A DNA stretch of 63,989 nucleotides, the filler included, from Craspedostauros australis (Eukaryota), in NCBI GenBank assembly GCA_030167865.1. It is 7 parts of 7 records of this genome, joined end to end, with 100 filler letters (N's around TTAATTAATTAA, not from the genome) between each part and the next. Parts side by side here need not be neighbours in the genome. Positions count along the whole stretch, not along the records: positions 28,119 to 50,239 come from JALAGF010006421.1; 6 more parts are not named here. One strand, 5' to 3'. Positions 13,055-58,383 of the stretch are shown here, piece after piece. Each line of letters starts with the position of its first letter. Position 1 is the first letter of the stretch. Under the pieces are notes generated by a model. The model worked only from the letters and a program-made list of their open reading frames with translations, made no database searches and was not told the DNA's origin. Position numbers and translations under genes: made by a program.

Positions 13055-13743
13055 AATGGATGGTCCTCAGTTGTACGAGAGTACTCGTGCGCAGAGTAGA
13101 GTGGTATGATGGTGCATCGAGGAGATACTGTAGACAGTAGCACAATCGAGGCTTCGAGATGCAGCTTGCTTACAATCGCAATCATTAGAGTAAGTTGGAA
13201 CAAAGTAAGCAAAGGTTAGAGTGATGAAGGGAAGCAGGGTGCTGTGCAGTATGGCGTCTCCAAAGAGAGACAAAGGGAGAGCGAAGAAGACGGGGTTGCC
13301 TGTCTCTCTATGAGTGGTCGGTACTATTATGATCTACTCGTAGTCGTATGGTAGTAAGTCTAGCTCTATTCTTCATGATGGATGACAAATGTGTCCCCAA
13401 ATCGATCGGAAGATTGCGATGTTGCATCCGATGACAAGATGACAAAGACGCTGTGAATGTTCCACCAATGCGCCAATGCACCAATGCTCAAAGCGCAACT
13501 GAACAGCAAATGGAGGATGAAGATGTGAATCAGAAAGACACATCACTCCACATTAGAGAATAGAGTTTAATAGAATAGAGTAGAGTAGAATAGAATAGAG
13601 CACCATCGCGTACTTCATAGCGTAAATACACGATCACTCGCACTAGCACCAGCAACCAGCACAAGACCATCGACCTTGGCTTGATTCCACCACCGGCGGC
13701 GGCAGTGAACTGCAGACGCTGCACTCCAACTGCGGGCGCCACG

Positions 13744-19200: not shown

Positions 19201-20338
19201 TCACCGAGGTTTTGGTTGGGACCGACGGTGGTGGTGGTGACAACGGTGGTGACAACGATGGTGACAACGATGATTGTGGCGTACACCAAGGCCAGTCATA
19301 GTTGTGATCATCCCGTTCCAGTTGGATGCGAGGGGCGTCATCATCGTTGCGATCGTCGTTGTTGTCGGTGTCGATGTGAAGGCCACATGTGAGAGGTCCC
19401 ATTGATTGCAAGAGTCGTTGAAGGGCCAACATTTGCAAGTAGGTTCGGCGGTGGCGGTGGTGGGTTCGTTTTGGTTGTGTGGGGGCGTTCGGATCAGATG
19501 GGGGTGACAGATTGTGGATACGGATACAAACGCAGTCGCAAATGCAGTTGCAAGAGCATGCGTGTGGTAATGCAGAAGATGCAATGAGATTGGAGGGGGA
19601 GAAGGAAGGTGAGAAATCAAAATCAGTCGGTTGATCCGAAGCGCCGAATGCATCGCAGACTGGAGATGGGGCGTGATATCCATCATGTTGCTGGCTTGCT
19701 TGTTGCACGATGGGAACACCGCACCAAGTTCCAAGTGCGGTGCTCTGTCGATGCATGCGCCTGATTGCTTGCCTGTCGGCTTGGCTTGACCCGGCCGCAG
19801 TTGGATGTGTGAATCGAATCAAATCAAATTGAATCGAATCCAACCAGCCAAACAACCAACCCAGCAAGAAGCAAACGAGCAAGTAACCAGCGAACATGGC
19901 GAAAATGGCACGCCTGAGCACAGCAGCCAACTGTTGCGTGAATCATCTAGCAACATGGAGGCAACTGCCACCAACACCAGACTGGCGGCAAGCTGGCTGA
20001 TGTTGCGAAGCCTCTCGCCCTCCCATCCTCATCTTGATGCGCCCGATGCGCAAGCGGAGTGATCCTCGATCATCGTATGCCCCTGCCTTGTCTCAACGCA
20101 CCTGATCCTTTGGCTGTTCTTTCGTGGATTCGCTCTTCTTGTTGCTGTCGCTCGCTGCAGATTTTGCGGAAGGATCGACGCTCTTGGTATCCTTGGCTGC
20201 TGCTGCTGGCGTGGCTTTCTTCTTGCTGCTGCTTGCGCTCTTGGAGTCGGTTGCTGCTGTGGGTGCCTTCGGTGTCGATCTCTGCTGCTGCGCCTCTACT
20301 TGAACGGGTTCACTTGGCTTGCCACCGCAATTACCCAT
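16277..20338 (-). CDS. Single-chain cyclic-nucleotide-dependent AGC protein kinase (PKG-like architecture), 3 exons
   Basis: Exon 1 20338-20102 (MGNCGGK..., acylation motif), intron 20101-19019 (GT..AG). Exon 2 19018-17578 has two clear cNMP-binding domains (FGELALLYDAPRAAT, FGERALMTGEPRAAN) and a degenerate third. Intron 17577-17206 splits GMG|AFG. Exon 3 17205-16277 is the kinase (YALK, YRDMKPEN, DLGFAK, TLCGTPEYLAPE, AGC tail). Confidence 0.9.
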
Positions 20339-21183: not shown

Positions 21184-21275
21184 CCGGTGATAGCTCAGTT
21201 GGCAGAGCGTTTGACTGTAGCGGGTTTCACCCTGAGGTCATCAAACGGTCACCGGTTCGATTCCGGTTCACCGGA
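21184..21275 (+). tRNA. trnY-GTA: tRNA-Tyr (GTA) with a 19-nt canonical intron
   Basis: Acceptor stem CCGGTGA/TCACCGG + discriminator A, D-arm TAGCTCAGTTGGCAGAGC, anticodon GTA at 21217-21219, intron 21221-21239 after position 37, T-loop GGTTCGATTCC, T-rich Pol III terminator downstream. Spliced length 73 nt. Confidence 0.95.
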
Positions 21276-21954
21276 CTGTTTCTTTTTGGTCCACGTTTCA
21301 ATCGTCGATACGGGCGCCAGCAGCCTGAAGAGGAAACGATCCTTGAATTGTGGTTGTCATCACTCATCTCTCTGCTGCTCTGCAACATTCTATTGTTTTT
21401 CAATGTTGGGAGCCCCCACGTCTCCGTTCCCGTTCTACGGATTGCGAAAGCTTGGTTGTCGTTCATCGTTCGGCGGTGCCCCTCATCTTTTCTCATGGTT
21501 CTTGCATACTCGTACAGTATCATGTTTTGTGGATGGATCCGGCGAAGTGTTCTGCACCCCACCGAAGGGCTGCGAACAGTTGCACACAGGTGATACCGAT
21601 GACGACAGTCGCGAACAACAGAGAAGCTGCACAAACTTCTCAAAAAGCGTGCGACCGTGTGAACAAGTCCAATAGATTTGCGCCTGGCCGCATGTTGGAT
21701 GTCGCGGCTCGGCGGTGCCATGTATCTTTGATCGTGCTCTGCAGCAAGGTGTTCTGGAGAGACGGCCTCCACGACCACGAAAGTACTATGTGGAGCAGCA
21801 GCAATAGTTCTCCGCATGAGAATTGTTCTCAGGCACATCGAAAGGAGGACGCCGAGGGTGGAAGCATCGTCACCTTGCGATCAATTGCGACCACAAAAGA
21901 AGTGTTCATACTCGTCGGGTCTGAAGTACTACCTCCAGGTCGCAGTTGATGCAC

Positions 21955-22141
21955 TCACGATAACACTAGTTGTGGAGTTTTGGCCCCTTGTTGTCACTGG
22001 TTTGCTTGCTTTTGGGAGAAACGGCGATTGGATANNNNNNNNNNNNNNGTGTTTGCTCTCGCTGATCCGTCTTCTACGTCACAGGGAACGTATTCCACGT
22101 CATGAGAAACGAGTCACAACAGAGGAAGAGACATCGTGTGA
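21955..22141 (+). repeat. ~187-bp repeat (putative long TIR or end of a DNA transposon), inverted copy at 50624-50810
   Basis: TCACGATAACACTAGTTGTGGAGTTTTGGCCCCTTGTTG...GAAGAGACATCGTGTGA matches the reverse complement of 50624-50810 with scattered substitutions. Confidence 0.75.
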
Positions 22142-22316: not shown

Positions 22317-22417
22317 TNNNNNNNNNNNNNNNNNNNNNNNNNNNNNNNNNNNNNNNNNNNNTTAATTAATTAANNNNNNNNNNNNNNNNNNNNNNNNNNN
22401 NNNNNNNNNNNNNNNNN
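22317..22417. other. Artificial scaffold linker N-TTAATTAATTAA-N (also at ~28063, 50284, 56124, 58329, 62753)
   Basis: The same all-frame stop oligo embedded in N runs, six times. Confidence 0.95.
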
Positions 22418-22499: not shown

Positions 22500-22962
22500 C
22501 CTGTATCCATGATTTTGATGTCCTTCGGTCATCGGATCTTCACCACCTGTTCTGACTTGGAGACAGATGTCGACGTGGTGACATGATGACATTCTGTCGA
22601 CGTCAGTAGGCGTCCTTCTGCTCTCCAGATGTCATGTTCCATTGGTGATGCAGCAGTCTGTCAGATGATATTGTCATCTGGGGTTTAGTTGGGAGGTACC
22701 TCGAGCTTCGCTCGATACCATACGTTTCCATTGATGGATGGACGGACGATGTTCTAATTCTCTCAGAAATCGTCGATTGCAAATTTCCTCCAGAAATTCT
22801 GTTCATTTTCGTGTGTTCCATTTGTGATGTGATTTTGACAAATCACAGCATACTAACCGCACGAATGTAGTTGTACTGTCCAAGCATGTATTAGAGAATA
22901 ACAGGTGAACGATGCACATATACTCGTACATCTTGACATATACTCACATGTACATCTCGAAA
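22500..22962 (-). mobile_element. Diverged LTR copy (5' ~460 bp), interrupted at 22500
   Basis: Reverse complement aligns by eye to 23028-~23478 with many substitutions. The terminus reads TTTCGAG instead of TGTCGAG. Confidence 0.8.
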
Positions 22963-23027
22963 GGAGACTCCAAGAAGAATCGAAATAAAAACATAATGAA
23001 ATCGCAAGCAGAATCGTAACCACCACC

Positions 23028-26000
23028 TGTCGAGATGTACATGTGAGTATATGTCAAGATGTACGAGTATATGTGCATCGTTCACCCGTTATTCTCTCAT
23101 ACGTACTTAGACGGTATAACTACACTCGTGTCGATAGTATGCTGTGATTCGTCAGAATTACAGCGGAAATGGAACACACGAAAAGGGGCAAGATTTCTGG
23201 AGGAAATTTGCAAATAACGATTTCTGAGAGAATTGGAAGATCGTCCGTCCATCCATCAATGGCACCAAGAGAATCTCGAGGTACTTCCCAACTAAACCTC
23301 AGATGACGATATCATCTGACAGACTCATGCATCACCAATGGAACATGACATCTGGAGAGCAGAAGGACGCCTACTGACGTCGACAGAATGTCATCATGTC
23401 ACCACGTCGACATCTGTCTCCAAGTCAGAGCAGGAGGCAAAGATCCGATGACCGAAGGACATCAGGATCATGGATACAGAAGGTGAACTTCAAATGGTAA
23501 GTACTCATGGAGTAGGAACCAGTACTGAACGAACGGAGTGTCGAATGCGNNNNNNNNNNNNNNNNNNNNNNNNNNNNNNNNNNNNNNNNNNNNNNNNNNA
23601 TGGTAAGTACTCATGGAGTAGGAACCAGTACTGAACGAACGGAGTGTCGAATGCGGAGTACGCATCGAACACGGAGTATCGTGCAGCACGAGCACACGAT
23701 GTTGAGAGAGAGAGAGAATACAGAGAGGAGCGAGAGAGCATCTCGCGTACCGACTCATAGTCGGAGACTGAATCTACGAAACAGATTGAAGCGCCGAGAG
23801 CATCGGGCAAGAGAACAAACGGACACCAAGAGGATCAGAGTACCAACTAATGAAATAGCAAACGAACGACTATCAACCAACACCATCTTCCACGATCGTA
23901 GGTTACCGTGAGCGGAACTTGCCAACACGTTTATAAACGATAGATCAGGGCGAGCCCGCGGATCGGATCGTTCGAGGAAGACAAACATCATTCAAGAGCA
24001 ACAGACTGAATGAGCGAGGAAGAGGAATTGAAAGACATCCCTCTGTCCAATCCGGTTATCAAGAGAGAAGAAGGTGCGAGTGAGACTCGACTTCAAGAAC
24101 AGAAGGAAGCAGCCGCGGCTACTGTCCTATCAGGCGCAGAGGCAAGTGCAATCGACGAGACTGAAGAAGAACGGTCTGCAAGACTACATCGCAAGGAGAA
24201 GAGCATTCTCAAGGCGATCAAGCAAGAGGAGACTGGTGTGACGAAGAGCATTCGCACAGCCAAACAGAGTGGGAAAAGTGAGACACCACCAGGAGGAGAA
24301 TTTGTGACGAAAACAATCTCCGCGCAACAACAAGCAAAATTCGAAGAATCAACAACACAGAAACAGACGGAAATCAAGGGCGCGAGCGCACCAACGACAA
24401 AACAATGAATCAACATGGCAACATCAGCCAACATGAACAAGCGACGCATCAAGGCGCTGATGTTCAGCGGTGAACAGGAAGACTATAGCGCATGGGAGTC
24501 CCAAGCGAAGGCATACGCTCGTGCACAGAAGACGAGAGACGTNNNNNNNNNNNNNNNNNNNNNNNNNNNNNNNNNNNNNNNNNNNNNNNNNNAAATCAAG
24601 GGCGCGAGCGCACCAACGACGAAACAACAAACCAACATGGCGACATCAGCCAACATGAACAAGCGACGCATCAAGGAGCCGATGTTCAGCAGTGAACAGG
24701 AAGACTACAGCGCATGGGAGTCCCAAGCAAAGGCATACGCTCGTGCACAGAAGACGAAAGACGTGATGTTGGGCAAGACCAAGATACCAACGATGAAGGA
24801 GATCGCGGCAGCCGCTGATGAAGACAAGGAAGCGATGGAGGAGATCTACAAATTGGGATGCGACTGTTTCAGCGATCTAATCCTCATGATGGATGCAGAG
24901 AAAGGAAAAGGGAAGCAGGCCATCCAGTACATCAACCAATGCATCTCCGACGACTACCCCGAAGGAGACGCACATGCAGCGTGGAACATTCTCGCGGAGA
25001 CGTTCCGACCATCCGATGCGGTGACAAAGATCAAACTCAAGCGCCAATTCAACAACAAAAAGATGAAGAGAGACACGGACCCAGACACCTACATCACGCA
25101 ACTCGAGAGTCTACAATCGCGTCTCCACGATGTCAAATATGAGATCACGGACGAGGAAATGATCATGCAAATCCTCAGCACGGTGAGCAACGAATACAAA
25201 ACTCACATCGTGAACTTCCAACACCAACTCACGTTTAACCCAGAGCTGGTTACCATCAACGCGATCAGAGGAGTACTCCGCACTGCATACGCTACGCACA
25301 GAGGAGGCAAAGCATACGTCGACGACTTCCAAGACAGCAACACGAAGAGCAACGATACCGGCTNNNNNNNNNNNNNNNNNNNNNNNNNNNNNNNNNNNNN
25401 NNNNNNNNNNNNNGCACCAACGACGAAACAACGAACCAACATGGCGACATCAGCCAACATGAACAAGCGACGCATCAAGGCGCCAATGTTCAGCGGTAAA
25501 CAGGAAGACTACAGCGCATGGGAGTCCCAAGCAAAGGCATACGCTCGTGCACAGAAGACGAAAGACGTGATGTTGGGCAAGACCAAAGTGCCAACAGTGA
25601 GTGAGATCGCGGCAGCCGCTGACGATGCTAAGGAAGCGATGGAAGAGATCTACGAGCTGGGATGCGACTGCTTCAGCGATCTGATCCTCATGATGGATGC
25701 AGAGAAAGGAAAAGGCAAGCAGGCCATCCAGTACATCAACCAATGCATCTCTGACGACTACCCCAAAGGAGACGCACACGCAGCGTGGAACGTTCTCGCG
25801 GAGAAGTTCTGACCATCCGATGCGGTGATGAAGATGAAACTCAAGCGCCAATTCAACAACGAAAAGATGAAGAGAGACATGGACCCCGACACCTACATCA
25901 CGCAACTCGAGAGTCTACAATCGCGTCTCCACGATGTCAAATACGAGATCACGGACGAGGAAATGATCATGCAAATCCTCAGCACGGTGAGCAACGAATA

Positions 26001-28018
26001 CAGAACTCACATCGTGAACTTCCAACACCAACTCACGTTCAATCCAGAGCTGGTTACCATCAACGCGATCAGAGGAGTACTCCGCACTGCATACGCTACG
26101 CACAGAGGAGGCAAAGCATACGTCAACGACTTCCAAGACAGCAACACGAAGAGCAACGATACCGGCTTCGCAAGCACCGGTAACTTCAAGGGTACTTGTC
26201 ACAACTGTGGCGTGTATGGCCATAGATCCGCCGATTGCCCAGAACGCAAGAAATCGAACAGCAAGAAAAACAACAACAACAACAACAAGATGAACGGAAA
26301 GCGCAACAACAATCGCAACAAGGGAAGCGGCTTCAAGGGCAAATGCAACTACTGCGGCATCTTCGGACANCGCGAGGCGGAGTGCCGAAAGAAGAAGTTC
26401 AACGAGAAGAAGAAGGCCGACGAGCAGGCCAACACAGCAACACAAGGACACGACAAGAGCGGACACGAGATGGTACTCTCAGCAAAGGACATGCCGCTCT
26501 GCATGTTGGTGTCCGACGACTACATTGAAGACTCCTTCTTCGATAACTTCGAGTGCGTCGGAAGTGATGACGAAGTGCAGGATGATGAGATCATCCCGGA
26601 GTGGCTCAGTGAGGAGCCAATCATCCACGAGGTGGATCCAAGACGCGAAGTGNNNNNNNNNNNNNNNNNNNNNNNNNNNNNNNNNNNNNNNNNNNNNNNN
26701 NNCACGACCTGATCGGTCCATACGGCGACGAAGCTGAGATGGACGAGGCCAACGATAGCCACATCGAAGAGGCCATGAGCGATGACGACGACGCCGACGA
26801 GGACGGCGCAGATGAAGACGACGAGGCGAACCGCGACGAGTTGTCTCCTCCTCAAGCTGGGAGACACGAGAGAATGGGAACCTTCATCAATCAAGACGAA
26901 ACGCGCCGCGCCGCGGCGCCTCCTCCTCCAGCAGCGGGGAACAACAGATCGGGCATCTTCNNNNNNNNNNNNNNNNNNNNNNNNNNNNNNNNNNNNNNNN
27001 NNNNNNNNNNNNNNNNNNNNNNNNNNNNNNNNNNNNNNNNNNNNNNNNNNNNNNNNNNNNNNNNNNNNNNNNNNNNNNNNNNNNNNNNNNNNNNNNNNNN
27101 NNNNNNNNNNNNNNNNNNNACAGAGACAGCATTGGTGATCCAGAAGCAACTCATCTTCGATGCAGTGATGGAAGCAGGAGTGAGCCTGTTCCCAGGAGTG
27201 GAACGAGGAGTACTCAGACCGATATGGGTCAACATGATGGGATCCATCCTATCCGAGAACTTCAGATTGATCGAAGAGATTCTCGCCAATTCGGTTGTGA
27301 TCAATCGCATACTGGAAGCAGCCAAGACAGAGACGATCCCAGAGACGGATCTNCATTACATCCTTGGAGGATGTATGCGCGTACTCTTACGCGAGCGTCC
27401 ACGCGTCCACCCATANGATCCAGTCACAGGATCTCATCAAAGCAACACGATTCCATCGGACTACGCGCAACTACCCGATGACATGGATGACGGAGACCAT
27501 CATCCTCCATACAACGAAGATGGAGTTCACGAAGACGACGACGACGGCAGCTTCAACGACGAAATAGCTGCGGCAGCTGTGGAGCAGCTCCACGAGCTGA
27601 GCACCAAGTACAAGGACAAAGTCAACAAGGACACCTGGCTTGCCGATAGCGGAGCTTCGTGTCACATCGTCAACTCAGACGCCGCTCTCTTCAACGTGCG
27701 GCACATCAAGTCCTTCGTCCAAGTGGGAGACAGCACNNNNNNNNNNNNNNNNNNNNNNNNNNNNNNNNNNNNNNNNNNNNNNNNNNNNNNNNNNNNNNNN
27801 NNNNNNNNNNNNNNNNNNNNNNNNNNNNNNNNNNNNNNNNNNNNNNTGAACCTTTTCTCCACGAACAAGGCTCTGTACAACGGTTACCAGCTTGGTAACA
27901 ACGGCATTCTGATGGACATCATCAACGGATCCGTAACGAAGATCGTGTTCGATCGAGTCTTCCCCACATCCAACGGATTCATCACGGGAGTGCAGATGCA
28001 TCCCATCATGCCAACAGA
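23028..28018 (+). mobile_element. Ty1/Copia (CoDi-like) retrotransposon: 5' LTR, gag, protease; composite of several copies
   Basis: LTR starts TGTCGAG at 23028 (3' end uncertain, ~23882-23892). Gag from 24010: FSGEQEDYSAW, UBN2-like helices, two CCHC knuckles (CHNCGVYGHRSADC, CNYCGIFGXREAEC). Copia protease WLADSGASCHIVN and NLFS motif. Gag start is repeated three times across gaps with SNP differences; stops at 24406-24408 and 25810-25812. Confidence 0.9.
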
Positions 28019-29879
28019 NNNNNNNNNNNNNNNNNNNNNNNNNNNNNNNNNNNNNNNNNNNNTTAATTAATTAANNNNNNNNNNNNNNNNNNNNNNNNNN
28101 NNNNNNNNNNNNNNNNNNCGAATGAGGATGATGATCACGACGAATTACACGGGAGATGCTGCTGACCCTGCAACTTGCATTCTGACAGAACAACATCTCG
28201 TCATCATCTCATAAACCGAGAGTTCAATCAACTCAACAACGCAAACCAACTAAATCGACAACTAACGATTACCAATTTACCTCCAAACCAGAGCCCACGA
28301 TCTCACCACTGCACACGCCGGTCTCACAGTGCTGACATCTGGAACCAATATCACATCGGGCAAGTGAACGTGGCGTGATGGCGAGTGCGGTTAGGTACTT
28401 GTGTTCATGGTGCATGGGCGCGGTTGATGCAAACCGGCTGGGGCTTTCTGCCGTCGCGCGCACACACACAGGGAGAAAAGCACATCATTCCCAAGGTTGC
28501 CGTTTGCCATTGTCGGCATCAGATCCTCTGCAAAGTCGCTCGTGCCTCGTAGTGCCGCGCCTTACCCACCTGACATCGACACGTACAGATCCGACCTCTC
28601 TGGAGGAGAGCGACGCAATCTTGCTACGCCAAACAAGGCAGCGAGCCACTGTATCAACCCAGTGTTCCGCGAACGGGTGTGCCGTGATCCCTTGGCATTG
28701 GTTTGTGCGTTATTCTGTGACCAACACAAAGAAAGGGCAGGACAGCAGAAGTGAAAAAGCCCCGCCAGTATGTGTATCATGACGTTCGCGATTAAGTGTC
28801 GTTGCTTGCGCCATTGCGCGTTCGCATGACGATTGGAAGATGTTTTTCCGCTTTCTGAGAGGCGAACGGGCCTTGCGATCGGGCCTTTTGACAACTGTTG
28901 GCGCATCGGATAAATCTTGCAGTTTCACAAATGTATTGGGCTTTTCAAGGGAGTTTGTCGATTGCAACGGAGTGGTCCATCACAAGTGAAGGGTGTCGAA
29001 TCGAACATCGGAATCTGATCGGTGACGCTCTTGCGTTCTGGTACACATTCTACGTGTGTATGATGTGTACGTTGGTGCCGTTGACGAGAAGCACGATACG
29101 GTACTGGCGGCCCGTCAAAGAAATGTCCCGCGGCTATCCGAACACAGGCATAATCAGGCGGACATGGCCTCGCGAAAGTGTCGCCGGCTCATGCCAAGAC
29201 CAGAAGAAGCGTGGACAGCCAATCAGAATTGGCGCAGTTTTATCACAGAAAGACCTTTGCAACTGGCACGTTTAAGTTCGGCACGGCGCACACCATCATC
29301 ACCCAATGCACCAACAACGACACGTTTGCCGATACGATGGTGACAAGCACATCGTGTCAATCACTCCACCAAAAAGACTTTTTTGACCATGTGGCGGTGT
29401 TCCGTGGGTGGTTTGTGGCAGAGAGACTGTGATTGTGCGCGCGAGGACTGTTCGCGATGGTCCAATTTCTCGCCACCGCATTGCCGTGTTGTTGGTGCAT
29501 GGCCACGCAGTTCGAGCACCCGAGACAAAGGTGAACACACGGCAACAACACGAGGATGACAGGAAGGACATCAGCGACAAACCAGGCCAAGTGCACGAAA
29601 CAGCACCATGACAAAACCGCGAAAACGAAACGCCAAAAAGCAACAACAAACAGAATCACCTTCGTGGATGGACACAAATCACAAATTCTGGAATCAGAGC
29701 TCCCATACTTCCGAACACCACCAAAGCCGCAACCAACAACCAACAACCGACAAGCTCTCTGCGCAACATCTGCAACATCTGCAACAACCATACACGTAGA
29801 ACGAAGGTCAACTCGATAGACAACTGGATAGACGACCCGATAGACAACAGCCGTGTGCAAACAACATAAACACCACATC

Positions 29880-32626
29880 ATGAGCGAAGAACAGAAGAAG
29901 CAAGAAGAGCAGCAACGCCAGCAGCTCATCCAAACCATCCTGCTCCAACAGAACCAATCCTCGACCCCCGGAGAAGGCTCCATTGATGGCAGCCAGCTGC
30001 ATGAACACATGCTTCAGCAACACCAGCAGCCATCAGGAGGCAGCACAGGAGGATGCGGAGACTCGTCAGATGGACATGACGACGAAGACGTCGAGAACGG
30101 ATTTGAGATCCCCCAGCGATTCACCAAGAGCGGTCGCAAACGCGCAGTTCCGTTCCCCATGAAGGTAAGCAGCCAGCTGCAGCGCTCGTGGTGCCTGAGA
30201 TACAGAGAGCGAGTGTGTTTGTGTTTGCAAGTGTTGTATGTGTTGTATGTGGCAGGCTCTACGTTGCGTCTTGCCGCGTGCAAGGTCCATTCATCCCATC
30301 CCAGCCAAATCCCGCCAAAGACAAGTCCCACACCATCTCCACGGCCCCAAGAAGAAAGAAACGTGCTTCGCCGACTCCGCGAACCCACTGCAGCAGCAAC
30401 AACCACACCATCATCACTGCCGCAATCGCTACCACAACCGTCATCACCAACCAAAGGAAAGGAGAGGAAAGTCGAATTCCAACCCACGGCTCCCATCACG
30501 TCCTGGGGCCTTCCGCGCAAAACACCACCTCATGTGCCAGCAACCAACGAGTCTCAGAACCACATGATCAGCATCGACATCGACAGCGCAAGTGCAGCTC
30601 ATCGGATCAGACGACATCAGATCAGACTGCAGCTATGCTTGGCCTTGCTCGAGAGGCTGCTGTTCTCATGGGGCAGGATGGTCACTGGCGACTCCAACGA
30701 AGGAAAGAAGACACCCAGCACAAGCACGCACAAGCACAACCAGAAGCACACACGAAGCCGAAGATTACGCGCAAGACCACGACCATGATAAGCAAGCAAG
30801 AAGAGCACGGACAACAAGGGACAAGGCAAAGAATGGACACGCAGCGAAGACTTTGGCACGCTGCGCAACCCACTATGACCGCCATGCCTTCTGTCTTGAT
30901 TTGTCTTGCCTCGATTTTGTCTCGTTTTCCTTTGCTGGAATGCTCTGCTGCTCTGACATGCAAACGAACATCCGAGTTCACCACCGCAGCACAGCAGCGC
31001 ACCAACAGGAACGCCTCCGCTCATGCCAGTCACCCCCCACGTGCTGTGGACATGTGCACATGATGGCTGGGAGCATTCTGTCTCCTGTGTTGCCTTCCGT
31101 CACGGAGGCAGAGCAAGTCTTGTGCTCGTTTCCACGACCAGCCACGAGTCGTGGCATTCCACCACAGAAGTCCCTTTTTGTCCCTGATACTCTACTTGTG
31201 CCTTTCTTGTGGGCGCGGGTACGAGTACGAATCCGAATACTTTTCTTCACACCCTCACACATTTATCCTGTTCCCTGTACCTTGCTTGCATTCTTGTGCC
31301 TTTGTTGGTTGTACGTGCATTGATACTCTCGTGCACGTCCGGCTGATGGGCGGAATGACATCTTCGCTTCCAACCGACACTCCACACACGCCGATCCGGG
31401 GCAACTTTGTCGCTCGAACATCACCTCCACCATGACAACAACAACAACAACACCAACAACAACTGCCACCAACGATGAACGATGAACGATGAACGATAAA
31501 CAATCCGCAGCTCATGAAAGTCTTGTCCAACAAGAAGTTCAAGCACATCATCACATGGATGCCAAGCGGCAAGTCCTTCACCATCCTCAAGCCAAAGGCA
31601 TTTGTTGCCGAGATCCTCCCGGAGCACTTCAAGAGCGCCAAGTACTCATCCTTCACCCGCAAGCTCCACCGATGGGGATTCATGCGACATTACCGCGGCG
31701 AAGAGGCGGGTGCCTTCTACCACAAGGACTTCCAGAAGGATGATCTCGACCTCGCGGAGAAGATGACATGCCACAAGGTTGAGCCGTCCAAGGCCGCAGG
31801 AGTGGTCAAGAAGACCATGGGCGGAGTGCAGAAGCTGGATGGCATGCCAGGGAGCCTTTCGGGTCTCGTCCATCTGGACGGCATGGACAGAACCGGCCTA
31901 GGCGAAGACGACATGAAGCAGCCAAGCCTCGCGGGCTCCCTCGCCAACCAGGCCATCCAGCGGCAGCAGATCCTGGCAGGCAACATCCGCAACGGCCTTG
32001 GAGGCAACATGGGCGCCATTAACGGCGCCATCAACGGCAGTCTCGGGGCTGGATTCGGCGCCAATGTCGCAGGTCACTCCCTCCCCAACATGGAGCAACA
32101 GAGGGAGCAGCGACGAGTCCCCACCTCGCTCCCACCGGACATCATGCTCCAATTGCAGCGGCAGCAGCAGCAACTCCGCATCTCGGAGCAACCTCCATCG
32201 CAGCAGATGGCCCCCACCCTGGACGCTGTCATCGAGCTGGAGGTCAACCGCCGATTAAAGGAGCGCATCCGCATCGCGGCTTCGGCACGCCACCACCAGT
32301 CCCTCATGCAGGGGCAGGCGGGTCTTTCCGCCACCAACTCCGCGGCTGCTGCAGCCCAGGCACGCCATCAGCACCAGCACGCGCACCATCATGCCCACAG
32401 GGGCGCCGGTGCGCAGCCATCGGCGTCCACCTTGGCGTGGAACAACATCCAAGGACAGACCCTGCGCAACGTGCTCGTGCAGATGGAGATCGCCAAACGC
32501 CAAGGAACGCTGGATCCCACTCTCCTGGCCCTCGCCACCGGCAACTTCTCCAGGCTCGGTGGCAACAACAACAGCGGAGAGGAGGACCTGCCAAGGACGA
32601 ACATCCAGGGAGCCAGAACAGCCTAA
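29880..32626 (+). CDS. HSF: Heat shock transcription factor (HSF DNA-binding domain), 2 exons
   Basis: Exon 1 29880-30164 (...RKRAVPFPMK), GT..AG intron 30165-31510, exon 2 31511-32626 (LMKVLS...IITWMPSGKSFTI...FKSAKYSSFTRKLHRWGF...FYHKDF). Q-rich C-terminus. Confidence 0.92.
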
Positions 32627-34154: not shown

Positions 34155-37100
34155 ATGAGTACCCAATCACCTCCCTCCAATATCAACCCCGGCATCGCCA
34201 ACGGCAATACCACTGCGCACGATGTCATCCAGCAATCCATCCAGAACAAGTCCTTCATCGACCACATCAAGTTCGTCGTCGAACTCAAGTCCGACACCGT
34301 CTTCTCCACCTGGTACAACGACAAGGGAAAGGCAACCAACAACTACACCTTCCAGCAGCTCTGGGATGAAGCAGGACATTGCGCCCATCTCCTCCGCAAC
34401 GAATGGGGCGCCAACAAAGGTGACCGCGTCGTCCTCTGCTATGACTTCGGTCTGCACTTCTTCGCCGTCTTTCTGGGATGCCTCCGTGCAGGCGTGACTG
34501 CCGTGCTGGTCTATCCTCCTGGGCCGCCGCTCGTCAAGTCGCTCACCAAGATGACCAAGGTGATCGAGGATTGCGCTCCGGCATTCATCCTCACCCAGGC
34601 GACCATCAAACTGCTCCGGCTCGCCGATCGCGCCAACCCAACATCCAAGAGCCGCACCATGTGGCCAAGCGGGGTGAAGTACCAAGTCACTGATCGTATC
34701 ATCCGCCACGACTCGTTCGTCACCGACAAGAACAAGATCAACAGCAACAACAACAATTCCAAGCAGGTAAAGAAAGGCTTCTTTTCCAACCTCGTCTCTG
34801 GCCGTTCATCGTTGGTGCCACCTTCATTCGATGAACCCAACATCGCAGGATCGGATCTGGCGTTCCTTCAGTATACATCTGGAAGCACCGGTAACCCAAA
34901 GGGCGTCATGATCACACATGATGCACTGAAAGCCAACATCGAACTCACCCAGAACTCTTGGTTCAGCATCTTCGAAAAGCAGCTAGGCCACAAAAGCAAA
35001 ATCCCACAGCGCATCACATCCTTCTCGTGGTTGCCACAGTACCATGACATGGGCCTGATCCCAATGGTCATTGCTCCATTGGCTGGGGGTTTCCACGTGC
35101 ACATGATTTCACCAGTGGCATTCATCCAGAATCCCTTGCTTTGGATCAACCTCATGTCGCAGCACAAATGCCATTTCAGCGCTGCCCCCGACTTTGCCTA
35201 TCAGCTGGTCATCCGCAAGTTCAACGAAATCAAGCAGCAGGCTGGCAGACGATCTGATCTCATGCCGCACTTGGATCTGTCAAACACGTTTCATTTCCAG
35301 AACGCCGCCGAGCCGATCCGGCTGGACACGGAAAAGCTATTCTCTGATGCATTTCTTCCATACGGTCTGCGCAAGGACTGGTTCCTCTCGGCATATGGCC
35401 TGGCAGAGCACGTGGTCAGTGCCTGCTGCATCCACGGGCTGCGCCTCTCGACCATCCGCGAGGGTGAAGATCTCCATCAGTTTGTTGCGGTTTCGCAGCG
35501 CAAGAATCAGGACCCCTCCACCGAGATCATCATCGTGGACTCGGACACCCGAGTACAACGTCCAGACAACGTCACAGGAGAGATCTGGATCGCGGGGCCA
35601 TCAGTCACCGCCGGGTACTACGGTCAACCAGACCTGACTGCAGAAACCTTCCAAGCTGCACTCCAAGGCGTTTCATCCGACACCAATACCGATCGTAAGA
35701 CGTACTTGCGAACAGGAGACTGCGGATTCTACCAAGACGACTATCTCTACATCTGCGGACGCAAGAAAGACATCATCATCGTCAATGGTGTCAACTACTA
35801 CCCGCAAGACGTCGAGCACGCCGTCCAAGACGCATCGTCTGCCGTTCGTCCTGGTTGCGTCGCCGCCTTCTCCTACGACGACTCAGGCAACGACGGACAG
35901 CTCGAGATCGTCTTTGAGATCCGAGCCAATCATGCCGACGATGCCGCAACAGTCTGTCAGGAGATCAGGCAGGCTGTGATCGATCACATCGGATTGACAC
36001 CTGTCACAATCGCAGCCGTCAAGGAACGCACGATCTCCAAAACAACAAGCGGCAAGATCCAGAGACGCCAAAATCGCCAACGTCTGCACGATGGAGACCA
36101 GAAAATGGTCTTGAACTTCAGCGCAAACTCAAATTCAACCACCCAAATTGCACAGGATGGCGATGTCAAGTCATCACCAACCGGAATCATGTCGGAAAGG
36201 AACGCAGACCAAGACGAAGACCTCCGAAGTAAGACGTTCAATGAAATCATCACGAACGCAACGGGATCGCAAGTCAAGGGAGATGAAACGTGGGAGGATG
36301 TTGGATTGTCATCCATGGGGGAACTAGAGCTCCGACAGTCACTGTCAAAATGGTACAGCACCACCCTCCCTTCGAATTGCTTCGACATGTTCTCAACGCT
36401 CATGGATCTTGAAACATTCCTCGAGACATCGCACGGAGAACCACTCCCAACGCGTCTTCCGACGCTCAAGAGACTCATCAGCCTGCGCAACGAGAAACCG
36501 CTTGCACCGCTCGCATCCACCACCATTCAGTTCATCGGTGTGCTCGTCATCCTCTTCATATTCGCACTTCCCATCGTGCCCGCCTACGAGATTGGGAAGG
36601 TGCTGGTCAACGACGATCGTGCCTACGAGCTCTTCTTCATTGGCCTCTCTCCGTACGTGTGGGTGTGGTATCCACTGGTCGTTCCGTTCTGGGCCATCAC
36701 ATTCACCATCGAAGTCGTTCTCGCAAAGTGGATCGTCATTGGCAGATACAGAGAGGGGTACACCAGCCAGACCAACATTTACTTTCTTCGATGGTGGTTC
36801 GTGGATCGGCTTGTGCACATCTGGGAGAGCTTCCTTGGACGCTTCATCATGGACACCCCTTTGTTGGTGTTCTTCGATTACTTGATGGGAGCGAATGTGC
36901 ATGCATCATCGAGCATCGATACATTCATCCGTGAGTTCGACCTCGTGAATATCGGCCCTGATGCCACGGTGAGCGAAGGTATCCGGTGTCGCATGTTCGG
37001 TCCGTGCAAAGACGGCTGCCAAGGCCCCACCTTGAGATTCCGCAAGATCCAAGCTGGAGCAAGTGCAGATATCAAGGGCATTCTTTGTCCTGGAGTCAAG

Positions 37101-39443
37101 GTTGGGTCCAACTGCCAAGTCTCTCACACGTCTGTGCTGGTGGAAGGAGCACAAGCACCGCCCAACACTACCATCCGCGGCAATCCAGGTTTCATCCATG
37201 TCACATGCACACATGGAGCCACAGACGCAGACGCTGGCAGTAACAATGACAGTCTGGAGATAGCGACAAACGCAACTCGCCCCACCACACAATCCACTGC
37301 AGGAAATCGCAGATGGATCATATTGGGTGCGATGAAAATGCTGTGGTTGCTGATGGAACTTTACTTCGCTTTCGCCTGCTTTCTGGTGGTCGACATCCTA
37401 GTCCGGGATGAGTTACCAGACTGGAGGTATGCGAGGCTGCTCTATTGGATTACTTCCATTGGTCTAACTTCCACATTCTTCATCGTTTCCAGCATCATGC
37501 TCAAGTGGGTGATGATCGGCAAAAAACGGCCAGGCCCCGCATGTCAGAGCGTACCATCTGAACTTGCCAGTTGGGCATGTGACTTCCACTACAGCCTCGG
37601 AGGCGCCGTGCTATATGGATTGACATTTCACTCATTGATCTGGAATGTCATCCTCTTGGCATTTGGGATGGACATTGATCTGCAATCGCATGTCTCAGCA
37701 CATGCCTTCCTTCCATCTCAGCTGGACCTCATCACAGTCAAACGATCCTTCGTGTCCAAATCTACCTTCGACATCAAACAGGATGGCCAATACAAAGCCA
37801 TCAAGGTTGAAGACAGCAGCATCGGGTTGAACGTGGTCTGCGGCCCAGGAGTGACAGTCAGCAAATCCCTGGTGTCTCCAGCCACTTTCGTCACCACCGA
37901 CCTGGTCCACGATCAACACGACCCGAGAAATGAACTTGTCACATGCTGGGAGTTGATACGGATCATCCTCCTGAACACGATCCTGTATGTTAGGAATTGA
38001 GGGTACAACTTTGTCGGAATACCCGTGATTGCCGCACCTCCCAACATTGTTCGTCACAGCTTTGAATATTATTCATCACATGTTCAGAGACTATTTGTCA
38101 CACCTTTGTATACCATGTCATTATGACTATGACTAAGCATACGGACGCGATTGATACCTGTATAACCGCGAGGAGGATAGCCTGTCCTCTGGTAACGTAA
38201 GGAAAACACCCATGGCGGATCAGGAGGTCCCGATACCACGCCAACCATGTCAACCATCCAGACGACGACGTCGATCAGAAGAGCATGTCCATGGGCAAGT
38301 GACGCACCTTCTTCAGAGGACAGCACATGCCTCTCCTGCGGACAAGAACATCCGCAGGTTTGGAACATCAGAAAGGATCAGAACATCCGCAGGATTGGAA
38401 CATCACCAAAGATGACATCGATCATGAGACGACGATGTCGTGGGAATCAATGACGGAAACATGAGATAGGCAAGTGCTCAAGACTGCAGATCCCTACCAT
38501 GCAAGCGTAGACAGCTACGACGATGCAGAGACAAGGAAGCAAGAACAGAGCATGATGAANNNNNNNNNNNNNNNNNNNNNNNNNNNNNNNNNNNNNNNNN
38601 NNNNNNNNNNNNNNNNNNNNNNNNNNNNNNNNNNNNNNNAAGAGAAAGTGAGATTGTGCTCACAGTTCTAAAACGGTACAGTTTCTAACAGCAGATTAGA
38701 TCTTAGTACTAACTATAACCCCGGATTTCCAACACCTGTACATCATCATGCTAGTCATGGTCGCTGCCAGCTTCATTCCAGCATTCGAGCTGTGGATGAA
38801 TGTCGTCAAGCCACAGACGCCGGTGGGTGCAGTGCCGGTTGTCGTGGTGTGCGTCATCATCCAGACCGTCGTTTGGCTCATCCTGTTGCAAGCAGTTGAG
38901 CTACTCACGCTAGCAGGAAGTGACAGCCGTACCGAACCATGGTGCGTCCCATTGTACATGGTCTACCAATCCTTGTGCTACTCGGTCCAAGTCTGGTCCT
39001 TCGTGTCGCTTTTGTGGGGCACACCAATGATGAATGCAGTGCTCCGACTGCAGGGTGCAGATGTACAGGGAAGATTGCTGTACTTTGGCTTCCGGATCTA
39101 CGAAGCTTCTCTGATGATATTTGGTGATGGGGCTGTGGTGGACGAATCAGGCATCTCTGGCCATTACGGCATATTCTCAACGATCACTCTGGGAAAATGC
39201 TACATCGATGGCATCATGCATCAAAGATGCTTTACATTGACTCGGAGCGTACCAACAACCCAAACTGCATGTCCAAGCACGATTGAGTACGGCCCAGGCA
39301 AGATGGTCGGCGATTTCGGGCCATCAGGCTTGAAGCAGCTGCACGAGCCGTCGCAGCGATCAATCAGCGATGGATCGTGTGAAGAACTGTCGGCAAAATC
39401 AGAGCAAGGAGGACCAGGCGATGCGCAAGCAGCTTGTGTTTGA
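34155..39443 (+). CDS. Fatty acyl-AMP ligase + carrier protein + three TM/beta-helix modules (Pls-like NRPS terminal region); interrupted by an LTR in this assembly
   Basis: FAAL motifs LQYTSGSTGNPKG, SWLPQYHDMGLI, NAAEPI, AYGLAEH, GEIWIAGPSVTAGYY, YLRTGD, GRKKDIII, KTTSGKIQR. Carrier motif DVGLSSM. Membrane modules with KWIVIGRY..FLRWWFVDRL, KWVMIGKKRPG and LWGTPMMNAVLRLQGADV, plus hexapeptide-like stretches. Removing 37988-38740 joins LNTILY-IIMLVMV in frame: 34155-37987 + 38741-39443 = 4536 nt, 1511 aa. Confidence 0.88.
37988..38734. mobile_element. Solo LTR, or collapsed full LTR element, with 6-bp target site duplication CCTGTA
   Basis: Starts TGTTAGGAA, ends TTCCAACA. CCTGTA at 37982-37987 and 38735-38740. 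Internal duplicated GAACATCCGCAGG(T/A)TTGGAACATCA and an internal N gap. Confidence 0.9.
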
Positions 39444-50239: not shown

Positions 50240-50623
50240 NNNNNNNNNNNNNNNNNNNNNNNNNNNNNNNNNNNNNNNNNNNNTTAATTAATTAANNNNN
50301 NNNNNNNNNNNNNNNNNNNNNNNNNNNNNNNNNNNNNNNAAATAAACCAGGATGGCATCCCCCTCTCGCTCATCCACCAAAATTTACATGGCGGTTCCGC
50401 CTATGCGCTCAGATCTTGCACTGAACCGCTGCTTGTCGCAGTGACGATGATGCCGTTCGACGGCGCTTGAGGAGTTTTGTTGTGTTTCTCCATTGTCGTG
50501 TTGTTGTGTTGTGTTCGGTGTTCTCAAACAGTTTTTGCTGTTGAGGCCATGGAGAAAACCCACAATTCTACCGAATGTGCCCATCAATGAGAACACTTTG
50601 CGAGTCCCGAATTTCGCCTCCAC

Positions 50624-50810
50624 TCACACGATGTCTCTTCCTCTGTTGTGACTCGTTTCGCATGACGTGGAATCCTTCCCCTGTGACGTAGAAGACGGAT
50701 CAGCGAGAGTAAACACGAAATAGCTCTAAATATNCAATCGCCGTTTCTCCCAAAAGCAAGCAAACCAGTGGCAACAAGGGGCCAAAACTCTACAACTAGC
50801 GTTATCGTGA
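50624..50810 (-). repeat. Inverted copy of the 21955-22141 repeat (putative transposon end)
   Basis: Reverse-complement match to 21955-22141, ending ...GTTATCGTGA. Confidence 0.75.
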
Positions 50811-53048: not shown

Positions 53049-54154
53049 TTAGGTAGTCCTACTGTCGTTTGGGTCGGCCTCCATTACGCGATCCAGGTGC
53101 TCGCCGAGTGCCTCGCGCAATCTCATCCGAGCCAGCTTTCGTTCCACCACCGGAAAGGGATCGAACAGTGGAGAACCACCCACAAGCTCAATTTGCGTAA
53201 TGGTGGCAACCGCATTAAAGGCAAGAATGTGTTTGTCGGTGTCATGTCGCCACGCATTTCTCATACATGCCCAGTGCTTCAGCCGTCGGTTAACAGTCTC
53301 ATGTCTTGCACGCAGAATCTTGTCAGTGACGTACTTGGGAGGCAAAACGCGTTCATCCCCAATGTATCCTTTGTCGGCGACAACAACTTCGCCGTCCATC
53401 AGCTTGTTTTTTAAACCGAAACGGAAGATGCTGAGATCGTTCCACATGCCACAAGGAAAGGGTCCATTGGTCCAGACGATCTCTCCACCAACAATCGAGA
53501 GGGCGACCTCATACCGGACACCTGGACCCTTGAACTTCTGTGAAAACCATCCCTCTGTGAACGGTTGCGGTTCTTCGATGCGAATGTCGACTCCGTCAAC
53601 AGTGACAAGCGCTTTGTCGTCTTCGGACACTCCACGAAAACGATTGGGCCAGTGAATCTGCAGTATTTATGCGTGACATGTTAGTGCTTTGTTGGAGAAG
53701 TGAATGGAACACGAAAGAACCAATGTTGATCAATTTGCGGACTTACCACGTCCTGCTTTACTCGGCTCACTAAGTCCAGCATGATCCAGACCCATTTGCG
53801 GAGTGTGGTGCGATTTGTGCCCAACCACACAGACAGAATGGCCTCTGTGGAGTACTGCTTCAGAAACGCCGCTGTCCAAAGAATGTGCTTCGCCTGCATG
53901 TCATGCCGACATAGCCCAGCTTGTCCGATTTCATTCCACAACGTGTGTAGAACCGTTCCTGTTGTGCCAAAAAAGGAAAGAAAAATTCGTTGATTATCTG
54001 CTGTGTTACCGAGTCGCTTGATCTCTTCCATGCTGAGGGAAACGTCAATGATGGACCAACCCAGCCAGTCGAAGGTCCCGGGGGTGAGCGCGTACAGGGG
54101 TAATCCGTCCGACATGTTTCGGCAGGCGCTTTTTCGGTTTTGTGACAGTTGCAT
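53049..54154 (-). mobile_element. DDE_Tnp_4-type (PIF/Harbinger/ISL2EU-like) transposase gene, 2 exons, apparently intact
   Basis: Exon 1 from 54154 (or 54115) to 53747 (HILWTAAFLKQYSTE...RTTLRKWVW). GT..AG intron 53746-53658. Exon 2 53657-53049 (IHWPNRF...VTVDGVD, WFSQKF, GPFPCG..NDL, VVADKGY, RARHETVNRRLK) carries the D-D-E residues. Confidence 0.88.
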
Positions 54155-56179
54155 AATCCCAACCCAACTCGAGCCTGGTTTGAGATGATTTACTTTTTAT
54201 CTTGTGTCGGTGTCAGCGTCGACAAGCCACTGCGCGCTGTCGTGCTGACACCAATACCAGACAGCCGCCACCTCCGCGGTGGGTGCCGTTTGTTCCTACA
54301 AACGTGAATCATTTGCTGTTCTTCGTGTCAACACATGAAGCGTGTGCACCCGTCGCCATCTTGCGCTGCATGACGAACACAACGACCTCCACATCGCAAT
54401 CAAACGTGAAACAATAATGAGAGGGAGCCATCATGTAGTGCCTATTCACACTATCATTTTATCATGAAGCCACAACATTGGACATGGTGGATGCTCCTTA
54501 CACAGCTTCCTGTCTCTCGCAGGCGTACAACATATTGGATTCAGAGCACATACATGTAGTAGTGCACTTGTGATTGTAATTTGCTGATAGAGCTAGTTGT
54601 TCCCGCAATGTGCCTTGTCTTTGCGGGATCGAAAGCAAAACTGCGTTGTTACGAACAGTGCCACAAATGCAAGACTCCATCGCTGCTTCACACTACCAAT
54701 TGTCTTATCCTTTGGAATCCTCTGCTTTGACATGGCGAGCCAGGGAAACGTCATTCATGACGGAGACAGGCCAATTTGCTTTCGTCACCAGCATTTGTGG
54801 TGTGGCATGATGGCTCTCCGCGCGACAGGGTTGATGTCACAAAACAGACCATCGGCAGCGGCACTTAATCACCATGTTTGTTCTGTACGACATGGATTGC
54901 CCAGCTCTGTGATGACACGTATACACAACATGTCCCTCCTTGGCGACGAAAGATGTACAGTCTCGGTCGTTTCTCCCCAATCTCACTCGTGTTTCCCTGC
55001 CATGGCGTCACATTGCGTTCGCTCATGCAACTACGATGCCAATGATGGCACTTGACACTGGACGCAGCTGTCATTCCGTGGTACTTCGTGTTGTTGTTCC
55101 TATCCAGCAAAGATATCACTTGAAGTTGCACGGCGGACAATATGCTGTTACTTTTGGGTGATACGCGGAAAAAGCTCTACCTTGTCGACGGAGTTCCCTG
55201 CATGGTGAGGGACTGCACCGATGTTGGTGTCATCGCAGCGAGGGGCGGGGAAACTCACGTCACGATTGACACCGACGCTCTCTGACATCTGCAATGTTCC
55301 ATGATGTCAAACAACTACGTCCACGGGCGTGCCACTCCATCCTCACGGATCTCATTGACATGATCTGACGCGGGTCATGCGGTAGGGCACAGCACCTTGC
55401 GTAGCATTGCCAAATTTGTGATGACGCGTGCTGTATCCAAGCATTCCAAGATGGATTATTCGCGGGGAACAGAAAGGTGCAGTAGTACTGATGCATGCAC
55501 ATTAAACACCTGCTGTGGTCGTGTCTTGCATGCACCTGTACATCCCAACGACGACGCGTTATTGCATTCCATGCCATTGGCGGAACAAGGTCATTTCTCC
55601 TTCCAGTGCTATCGCAAACGCACCAACCACCCCGCGATTCAGGATGACGATGCACAAAGTTCTCCATCGAGGGTGCTGTCTGTCTCTGGCTCACACTTGA
55701 TGCCGGACGCGTGTTGGTGGGTGCGGGGGACACGCACTCTCGCCTTCCACGATTGCCTTCGCGACGCACCATTCTCCACGATGACGTCGTCTTGCATTAT
55801 TCCACCTGCGCAGAGGCACGTCGTGCACAACATCAAAAACGTCGAACGCATCCCCCCATGCGCAAATGCATGCGCGTGCGGATGCTTGCACTGCAGATGA
55901 ACCATGCATGGGCTGCAAACGCACGAAGAGTGCACTGTATTCGCGTAGCAACATGTACTGTGAAACCATGTGCACTTTCCATACACTGTCCGTGTACACA
56001 GATCGACGTCGCATGCGCATGCACTGCACTTCACGCACTTTTCGTGCACATGCACTGCACTGCACTGTACCGCACTTTTNNNNNNNNNNNNNNNNNNNNN
56101 NNNNNNNNNNNNNNNNNNNNNNNTTAATTAATTAANNNNNNNNNNNNNNNNNNNNNNNNNNNNNNNNNNNNNNNNNNNN

Positions 56180-58284: not shown

Positions 58285-58383
58285 NNNNNNNNNNNNNNNN
58301 NNNNNNNNNNNNNNNNNNNNNNNNNNNNTTAATTAATTAANNNNNNNNNNNNNNNNNNNNNNNNNNNNNNNNNNNNNNNNNNN

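Follow-up and report, generated by a model that had tools for sequence, protein, structure and literature searches.

An interrupted diatom gene joining a fatty acyl-AMP ligase, a carrier and a Pls-like membrane region: a possible self-loading acyltransferase

Positions 34155 to 39443 (+ strand) of a 63,989-nt stretch of Craspedostauros australis DNA (GCA_030167865.1; the whole stretch is referred to below as the window) raise a question: what would a fatty acyl-AMP ligase (FAAL) and a carrier domain do at the front of a membrane region laid out as in epsilon-poly-L-lysine synthetase (Pls), and does this copy of the gene still do it? The encoded protein is a real Pls variant with a FAAL front end that looks undescribed, and it is widespread in protists and expanded in diatoms. 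The reading we favour, at a probability of about 0.5, is that the protein would be a self-loading membrane acyltransferase, independent of coenzyme A (CoA), whose acceptor is a separate hydroxyl or amine, and that the locus is an allele of a protist family of such enzymes, disrupted by a long terminal repeat (LTR) element.

From ATG 34155 the frame stays open for 1281 codons until a TGA at 37998-38000; further on, another open stretch finishes at 39443. The TGA belongs to a 747-nt insert (37988-38734), which starts with TGTT, ends with AACA and contains an 80-N gap (38560-38639). It is flanked by an exact 6-bp target-site duplication, CCTGTA; among the repeat lengths 2-9 only 6 matched. When the insert and one copy of CCTGTA are taken out, a protein of 1511 aa with zero internal stops results, and its closest homologue over the full length (P0054) is 46.6% identical. 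An earlier note on this DNA had described one intronless frame of 1511 aa; the length is exact after reconstruction and an intronless gene fits the homologue alignments (sequence alignments only), but the sequence is interrupted by the insert, which the note did not mention. The features of the gene, with the evidence for each in brackets, are:

34155..37987, + strand: 5' part of the coding sequence, residues 1-1277 of 1511 (open reading frame (ORF) from ATG 34155; full-length homologue match)
34242..36119, + strand: FAAL-type adenylation domain, residues ~30-655, FAAL-specific insertion shortened (Pfam, NCBIfam, PDB, model fold)
35028..35195, + strand: predicted CoA-rejection elements W292, P294, M299, helix S319-P327 and F347 (EcFAAL spacing, model, conservation)
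36237..36431, + strand: carrier domain resembling acyl or peptidyl carrier proteins (ACP/PCP), residues 695-759 (helical bundle in model; matches of the homologue P0009)
36312..36314, + strand: Ser720, predicted phosphopantetheine site (invariance, coordinates)
36507..37235, + strand: module 1, with transmembrane (TM) helices TM1-TM2, two core helices and beta-helix 1 (model, hhalign, hydropathy)
37317..37904, + strand: module 2, with TM3-TM4 and beta-helix 2 (K1117-W1118, D1143, D1191) (model, hhalign, hydropathy)
37944..37987, + strand: start of module 3, the first part of TM5, severed by the insert (hydropathy)
37982..37987, + strand: target-site duplication CCTGTA, left copy (exact repeat)
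37988..38734, strand not assigned: LTR-like insert, 747 nt including the 80-N gap (TGTT...AACA ends, duplication)
38735..38740, + strand: target-site duplication, right copy (exact repeat)
38741..39443, + strand: 3' part of the coding sequence, with the remaining TM5, TM6, beta-helix 3 and tail, stop at 39441-39443 (TIGR02353 1.2e-4, homologue alignment)
39162..39164, + strand: His1419, predicted catalytic base, aligned with the His of Pls QTHLFEDR (conservation, coordinates)

The adenylation domain had been called FAAL-type from its motifs, and all of these (WLPQYHDMGLI at residue 292, nt 35028; NAAEP at 383; AYGLAE at 413; and GLSS in the carrier) are where the call had placed them. Database and structural comparisons bear the call out. 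Pfam AMP-binding matches the window frame at 4.4e-55, the top NCBIfam matches include PRK05850 (fatty-acid--AMP ligase, 1.2e-89), with FAAL models far outscoring the amino-acid-type model TIGR01733, and a PDB sequence search returns FAALs at 1e-78. An AlphaFold model of residues 1-772 (pLDDT 87.6) matches the FAAL of olefin synthase, 7r7e, with a TM score of 0.90 by target length. The hallmarks of FAALs in the available part of PMC8460268 are a FAAL-specific helix, bulky W/M/F residues and pocket prolines. In the window, W292, P294, M299, S319-P327 and F347 are spaced like W224, P226, M231, 251-259 and F279 of EcFAAL (part of PMC8460268; mapped by spacing, not by superposition), and the FAAL-specific helix is present, residues 320-325 being helical in the model. 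Conservation was judged in an 82-row alignment, over its 37 closest rows: W292, P294, P320, F323, P327, F347, K634 and S720 are invariant in 37/37, and so are the putative pocket prolines P121-P122 (in YPP, 120-122) and P294 (=P226). Two paralogues, P0035 and P0038, have a degenerate FAAL core lacking the WLP..HD motif, with the carrier Ser and the module-3 His intact.

Pfam finds no match to the carrier in the window, so that of the domain-database matches anticipated in the earlier note, the FAAL and a TIGR02353/left-handed beta-helix (LbH) similarity were obtained, while the carrier was missed and TIGR02353 stayed below its cut-off. The GLSS motif begins at residue 717, and the nucleotides that had been proposed as the likely carrier Ser encode Ser720, which opens a helix in the modelled bundle and is kept in 54/54 aligned rows (the window and 53 chosen close homologues). 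The corresponding region of P0009, an intact homologue fragment, matches ACP/PCP structures with Z up to 10.0 and a root-mean-square deviation (rmsd) of 2.0 over 70 residues. Among close members the carrier always adjoins the C-terminal domain.

Beyond the carrier, the three TM-flanked modules with beta-helix or acyltransferase-like sequence that had been seen by eye are upheld by hydropathy, hhalign and fold matches. Family-averaged hydropathy gives six membrane helices as three pairs, and the three modules are mutually homologous (hhalign 98.9, 98.6 and 91.5%), beta-helices 2 and 3 being divergent. The model of P0009 (pLDDT 91.5, pTM 0.88) is laid out as a carrier and then a thrice-repeated unit in which two long helices and short ones come with a beta-helix, and these segments correspond to the six hydrophobic peaks of the window protein. 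Its best fold matches are trimeric LbH O-/N-acyltransferases (Z 11.4, rmsd 3.2-3.4 over ~150 residues); overall they comprise LbH acyltransferases, gamma-carbonic anhydrases and carriers, with coverage mainly of module 1 and the carrier. Assignment as a left-handed beta-helix comes from Foldseek/VIA on P0009 for module 1, and from homology and the DSSP pattern for modules 2 and 3. The best PDB sequence matches of the C-terminal domain profile are gamma-carbonic-anhydrase-like subunits. Only module 3 has the His; modules 1 and 2 are without it. In module 1, R885, E891, R926, E927 and R946 are family-specific and D929 is shared with Pls. Because the N-termini of 15 proteins have no obvious signal peptide (judged by eye) and the helices are paired, all soluble domains presumably lie on one side of the membrane, the cytosolic one. 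As reported earlier, no condensation, ketosynthase (KS), thioesterase (TE) or reductase domain is present; a Pfam scan of the window frame found none.

How close is this to Pls? The earlier note had recognised the Pls architecture, and that comparison survives in part. The layout is that of Pls, with adenylation and thiolation domains, six TM helices, three tandem beta-helix modules and no condensation or TE domain (in the reconstruction and P0009), and the homology of the terminal domain is real; however, the adenylation domain is not of the amino-acid nonribosomal peptide synthetase (NRPS) type, given the TIGR01733 scores and its position among FAALs in the tree below, the TIGR02353 cut-off is not reached, and QTHLFEDR is lost. 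TIGR02353 matches two parts of the window at 5e-19 (68.1 bits) and 1.2e-4 (20.6 bits), against a cut-off of 423.1. Four close relatives score 37-72 bits, the intact P0009 reaching 72.2, whereas the control P0044 scores 692.6, which marks the QTHLFEDR group as true Pls-type. At the module-3 position the window reads SGHYG, with no QTHLF(E/H)DR. We take a motif of this type, seen in the Pls-type rows here, to be a hallmark of the Pls/PosA family. Its Q, T and L occur in 14/14 Pls-type rows and are unconserved in the other 133, where QTHL becomes x-G-H-x, while H1419 is kept in 125/133 non-QTH and 14/14 QTH rows. Both kinds of C-terminal domain share D929, D1191 and the K-W motifs; R926 (127/133), E891 (121/133), R946 (121/133), E927 and W890 are specific to the non-QTH kind, and the first three point to an acceptor different from that of Pls. 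A FastTree of the C-terminal domains (147 rows and 610 columns, after exclusion of five duplicates, of partial domains and of segments that were too long) groups all non-QTH sequences with a support of 0.87 and places the window beside P0054 (0.999); those members of their clade that have names are diatoms. None of the 17 QTH-motif proteins among the 277 examined carries a FAAL motif. By these comparisons the protein is Pls-like in build and falls outside the Pls family TIGR02353.

The 277 proteins (276 fetched proteins and the window model, near-duplicates included) contain 83 with both a FAAL motif and a full C-terminal domain. By hand labels, 23 named Seminavis robusta proteins have both parts, and other named relatives of this kind come from Chaetoceros tenuissimus, Scytosiphon, Chrysophaeum, Mucochytrium, Salpingoeca kvevrii, Bigelowiella, Amorphochlora and Picozoa, so brown algae, pelagophytes, choanoflagellates and chlorarachniophytes are represented. 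The protein is thus not peculiar to diatoms, its relatives being spread over several protist groups. Intact orthologues include Seminavis CAB9522495.1 and Chaetoceros tenuissimus CTEN210_17552. Names were looked up for 30 clusters and most matches are unnamed; as the note had allowed, homologues are already annotated, under the labels FadD21, D-alanine ligase or hypothetical. With the C-terminal query, 8000 candidates were scored and 53 proteins found, and 904 representative clusters reached E <=0.001, of which the best 150 were examined. The full-length query gave 698 matches at 1e-60, with 120 examined, and a search for longer proteins gave 2 matches among 2258 candidates. In a metagenome scan, one of 65 stretches matched, a single-gene contig.

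A phylogenetic check for horizontal origin had been proposed, and a recent bacterial origin is not supported in the sample treed. In the adenylation-domain tree (134 rows; rows without YTSG[ST] or too short were dropped, including several non-diatom members) the window lies among FAALs, separate from amino-acid adenylation domains, and five bacterial-named FAALs form their own clade (1.0) apart from that of the window. There is thus no sign of a recent bacterial source, and the origin itself is not settled by these rows. Paralogy among the FAAL-Pls proteins is old, since a second FAAL-Pls group sits on a separate branch. Scans of genome contigs for P0122 (0/26 stretches) and P0089 (1/22 stretches, a stand-alone FAAL) revealed no bacterial FAAL-Pls fusion, and plasmids had no match, these scans being insensitive. 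The stand-alone FAAL, in a Parachlamydiales genome (L002 7956-9692), is the last of a co-directional gene run; a search of the same genome for a Pls-type domain found only a lone LbH match.

Some paralogues add an FAD (flavin adenine dinucleotide) oxidoreductase, KS, hydrolase or unknown domains; among the proteins with a full-length C-terminal domain there are 53 extra segments of at least 170 aa, none of them in the window. FAD oxidoreductases lie between FAAL and carrier in P0012, P0030, P0058, P0069 and P0158. P0122 is a FAAL-ACP-KS-ACP protein fused to the same C-terminal domain, P0058 has a C-terminal alpha/beta hydrolase, P0167 a weak acyl-CoA dehydrogenase match and P0174 an N-terminal WW domain. 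P0030 (Seminavis; 558-1470) and P0069 (1145-1992) have an insert in common (37% identity), with P450-like motifs recognised by eye (ExxR, PxR, CPA) and, after them, a domain of the FAD amine-oxidase type; even with E values up to 1 allowed, Pfam does not back the P450 call. A conserved domain of ~400 aa occupies the FAAL-carrier interval of P0010, P0013, P0033, P0037, P0062, P0073, P0075, P0210 and P0212. It has the motif Y.AWN...KLL.P...R..SL, related shorter pieces in pelagophyte-type members, and no match in Pfam, NCBIfam, PDB or Atlas. Related eukaryotic FAALs (P0213, P0208, P0229, P0223 and P0227) are fused to type III polyketide synthases (PKS), KS modules or PF03982, which we take to be the diacylglycerol acyltransferase family of Pfam.

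Whether this copy is still functional depends on the insert. It has the TG...CA ends and target-site duplication by which CoDi/Copia LTR retrotransposons of diatoms are recognised; according to the available part of PMC2806351, 23/26 diatom LTR families have TG/CA ends and their duplications are heterogeneous. Only 667 bases around the gap are called, and they hold no long ORF on the + strand. A similarity comparison found the insert unlike the other copia pieces of the window, and neither blastn nor tblastx found a further copy there. It is probably LTR-like, a solo LTR or a collapsed element, the class being inferred from its ends only. Its position is the fifth membrane helix, the TM peak at 1272-1290 spanning the junction. 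A translated product would end at residue 1281, without module 3 and His1419, and because that His lies beyond the insert the interrupted C. australis allele is probably inactive. The reconstruction departs from the consensus at only 2 of 131 columns (N874, D908) that are each kept in at least 90% of homologues, which is within the range of intact relatives; the gene was therefore probably intact until the insertion, and the insertion is probably recent.

That the locus still gives the full enzyme, the insert being an assembly artefact, confined to a single haplotype or spliced out, is a minority reading that we regard as doubtful. The 80-N gap within the insert and the near absence of decay in the coding sequence fit it, Blackbeard has an empty allele in Phaeodactylum (available part of PMC2806351), and five in-frame GT..AG pairs could excise the insert. 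But an exact 6-bp duplication with TGTT/AACA ends is the mark of a genuine insertion, and each of the five splices would cost 11-44 residues of TM5 (1467-1500 vs 1511 aa). A 75-nt intron (GTATGT...CAG, 37985-38059), which contains the stop and keeps the frame, was also considered together with a shorter insert, and extra residues remained relative to 26 homologues. Read-through of the sequence leaves a 33-column gap in 24/26 of these, 28 columns in one and a longer gap in another; the intron was dropped since the 6-bp duplication accounts for exactly 33 codons.

For the intact family members, the mechanism that we favour would run as follows. The FAAL domain, judged by its fold and motifs, would form an acyl-AMP from a fatty or related acid. 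CoA would be rejected and the acyl group loaded onto phosphopantetheinyl-Ser720, as the CoA-rejection elements and the invariant Ser suggest. The three beta-helices, carried on a six-helix membrane bundle, would form a pseudo-trimer like the acyltransferases of LpxA or maltose type; the modules are modelled here, and the trimeric packing is taken from the published PosA model. His1419 would act as the base, a role suggested by its conservation and by LbH enzymology, and the acyl group would be handed to a separate acceptor, onto its hydroxyl or amine, on the cytosolic side of a membrane, with the family-specific Arg and Glu residues of module 1 assisting acceptor binding. The product would be an acylated lipid, glycan or amine and not a homopolymer. 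Glycans, lysolipids, sugar phosphates and diatom polyamines are speculative acceptors. Of the Pls-like chemistry on acyl chains proposed in the earlier note, acyl transfer is the likeliest part, while a polyester is possible but disfavoured, the Pls residues around the His being replaced.

Several observations weigh against self-loading acyl transfer. Substrate, acceptor and product are not identified by any result here, and Pfam scans of 20 and 32 window frames found no biosynthetic neighbours. M299 varies in the close rows (M in 21, L in 9 and F in 5 of 37). The FAAL-specific insertion is about half its usual length, 11-12 residues below solved FAALs: measured between YGxxE and GE(I/L)W, the span is 65 in the window and 63-68 in close relatives, compared with 51-52 in Pls-type adenylation domains, 77 in LpFAAL, 76 in FadD28 and 85-95 in two choanoflagellate proteins (spans from regular expressions, LpFAAL and FadD28 counted by hand, rows with none or nonsense values ignored). 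With so short an insertion, CoA rejection may be leaky. In favour of the reading, the short-insertion clade also contains FAAL-ACP-KS and FAAL-ACP-type III PKS proteins, enzymes dependent on acyl-ACP, and this suggests that carrier loading is retained in it. The structural neighbours with FAAL-like folds include McyG and keto-acid adenylation domains, and what is activated may be something other than a fatty acid. An aryl, keto, hydroxy or amino acid would then be converted into small amides, esters or oligomers, and the short insertion and the pocket-lining positions that vary among paralogues would agree with this; we nevertheless hold it improbable, as every leading match, by sequence or by structure, is a true FAAL, better than McyG by about 10 or more orders of magnitude, and the adenylation-domain tree sets the window among FAALs and apart from amino-acid adenylation domains.

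The C-terminal domain raises a different objection, in that its only characterised relatives are polymerases. A Pls-like enzyme could load hydroxy- or amino-fatty acids and chain them into estolides, polyesters or polyamides through the six-helix bundle; the full Pls layout is retained (six TM helices, three beta-helices, no TE, His and Asp), and domains in the FAAL-carrier interval of some paralogues (FAD oxidoreductases, P0167, the KS of P0122) could supply the second functional group. A plain fatty acid, however, has no second nucleophile and cannot chain to itself, a tailoring domain is lacking in most members, the window protein included, and the surroundings of the His are not those of Pls; for these reasons we favour a single acyl transfer. 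Polymerisation strikes us as unlikely, and we rate no higher its broader form, in which FAAL-carrier-Pls proteins are a eukaryotic class that polymerises hydroxy- or amino-fatty acids without CoA and has been diversified by fused oxidative domains. Were it true, this class, which numbers over 20 paralogues in one benthic diatom, could be the missing source of lipid polymers or surface coatings in diatoms and other protists. Very improbable, in our view, is that the protein is mainly a membrane-anchored acyl-CoA or acyl-ACP synthetase, its beta-helices structural or regulatory like inactive gamma-carbonic-anhydrase-like subunits. The PDB sequence matches of the profile, the His missing from modules 1 and 2 and the divergence of beta-helices 2 and 3 would suit it, but conservation across distant protists covers the Ser, the His and numerous polar residues, and the carrier is invariably found beside the C-terminal domain in close members.

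The rest of the window comprises the following, all frames and genes from Pfam unless noted:

29844-32626, + strand: HSF-type transcription factor gene, just upstream, probably spliced
7165-8706, - strand: ankyrin-BTB-BACK frame
11768-13051, + strand: GST frame
13621-15534, + strand: JmjC/cupin frame
16280-19942, - strand: cyclic-nucleotide-binding kinase frame
3163-3999, + strand: weak lipase-like frame
24409-26712 (+), 56135-58328 (-), 58333-61293 (+) and 53052-53666 (-): transposon pieces (Copia-type gag, zinc knuckle, SH3, reverse transcriptase; DDE_Tnp_4 transposase fragment)
21184-21276, + strand: tRNA-Thr(TGT) gene, 92-93 nt (Rfam)

The neighbourhood is thus one of an HSF factor, a cyclic-nucleotide-dependent kinase, GST, JmjC and ankyrin-BTB proteins and transposon pieces, and the Rfam scan of the window found only the tRNA. 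Nested long inverted repeats at 22501-23479, with arms of 221 and 237 nt (88-93%), are possibly a foldback or DNA transposon remnant, and repeat arms at 21955-22141 match 50624-50810. Linkers of 44 N + TTAATTAATTAA + 44 N occupy 22318-22417, 28019-28118, 50240-50339, 56080-56179, 58285-58384 and 62709-62808. There are also near-identical short duplications around 50-N gaps, and join artefacts are likely in this draft assembly.

According to the available part of PMC12820801, no other eukaryotes carry as many FAALs per genome as diatoms (2.9, with 16 in Seminavis robusta); it lists FAAL-PKS for them and otherwise leaves the downstream partners unstated. Five of its supplements contain no TIGR02353, NRPS_term, LbH or Seminavis; four larger tables may list the architecture. 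Unusual plant FAAL fusions are noted in the available part of PMC8460268, and the part of its supplementary files covered has no match to the architecture. The available part of PMC10522769 reports Pls homologues in lower eukaryotes and does not contain the word 'fatty', and those of PMC11837247 and PMC7073580 do not describe a FAAL-Pls architecture. No literature description of FAAL-carrier-Pls was found, subscription journals being mostly uncovered. The present results indicate that many diatom FAALs are fused to a Pls-type membrane transferase, which would offer a route to acylated lipids or polymers in algae and other protists and would carry Pls chemistry over from diamino acids to acyl chains. 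What matters is the family, the interrupted allele being by itself little more than a natural null.

Among known systems, the uncharacterised HemY-FAAL-catalase proteins of plants (available part of PMC8460268) are likewise eukaryotic FAALs fused to domains outside PKS and NRPS. Unlike them, the window protein has neither HemY nor catalase, and that part of the paper makes no mention of a Pls-type domain. A Bidens protein, FAAL-ACP-hexapeptide, gives a partial match to the C-terminal domain profile. With FAALs and FAAL-ACP didomains (olefin synthase, Legionella, FadD23/28/32) the protein shares the fold, the specific helix, the W/M/F residues, the prolines and the fused carrier; it differs in the insertion, ~11-12 residues shorter, and in a downstream partner that is a membrane beta-helix and not a KS, condensation, TE or reductase domain. 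Such a partner is unmentioned for FAALs in the available part of PMC11837247.

Like Pls and PosA (available parts of PMC8506220 and PMC10522769), it has the adenylation-thiolation-membrane order, six TM helices in three pairs, three beta-helices and no condensation or TE domain, and it shares the K-W motifs, D929, D1191, G-T-P and the module-3 His. It is set apart by its FAAL-type adenylation domain, a TIGR02353 score below the cut-off, the lack of QTHLFEDR and a separate C-terminal domain clade. PosA was predicted as the same three-beta-helix pseudo-trimer at a time when no structure existed (available part of PMC10522769), and our PDB sequence and fold searches found no full-length Pls structure. 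Each module has the fold of the trimeric LbH acyltransferases (maltose, serine and galactoside acetyltransferases, AntD, LpxA/LpxD). LpxA uses acyl-ACP donors and a catalytic His. Unlike these trimers, the protein combines three unequal modules in one chain on membrane hairpins, has the His in module 3 only, and carries the donor carrier and the activating enzyme fused to the same chain.

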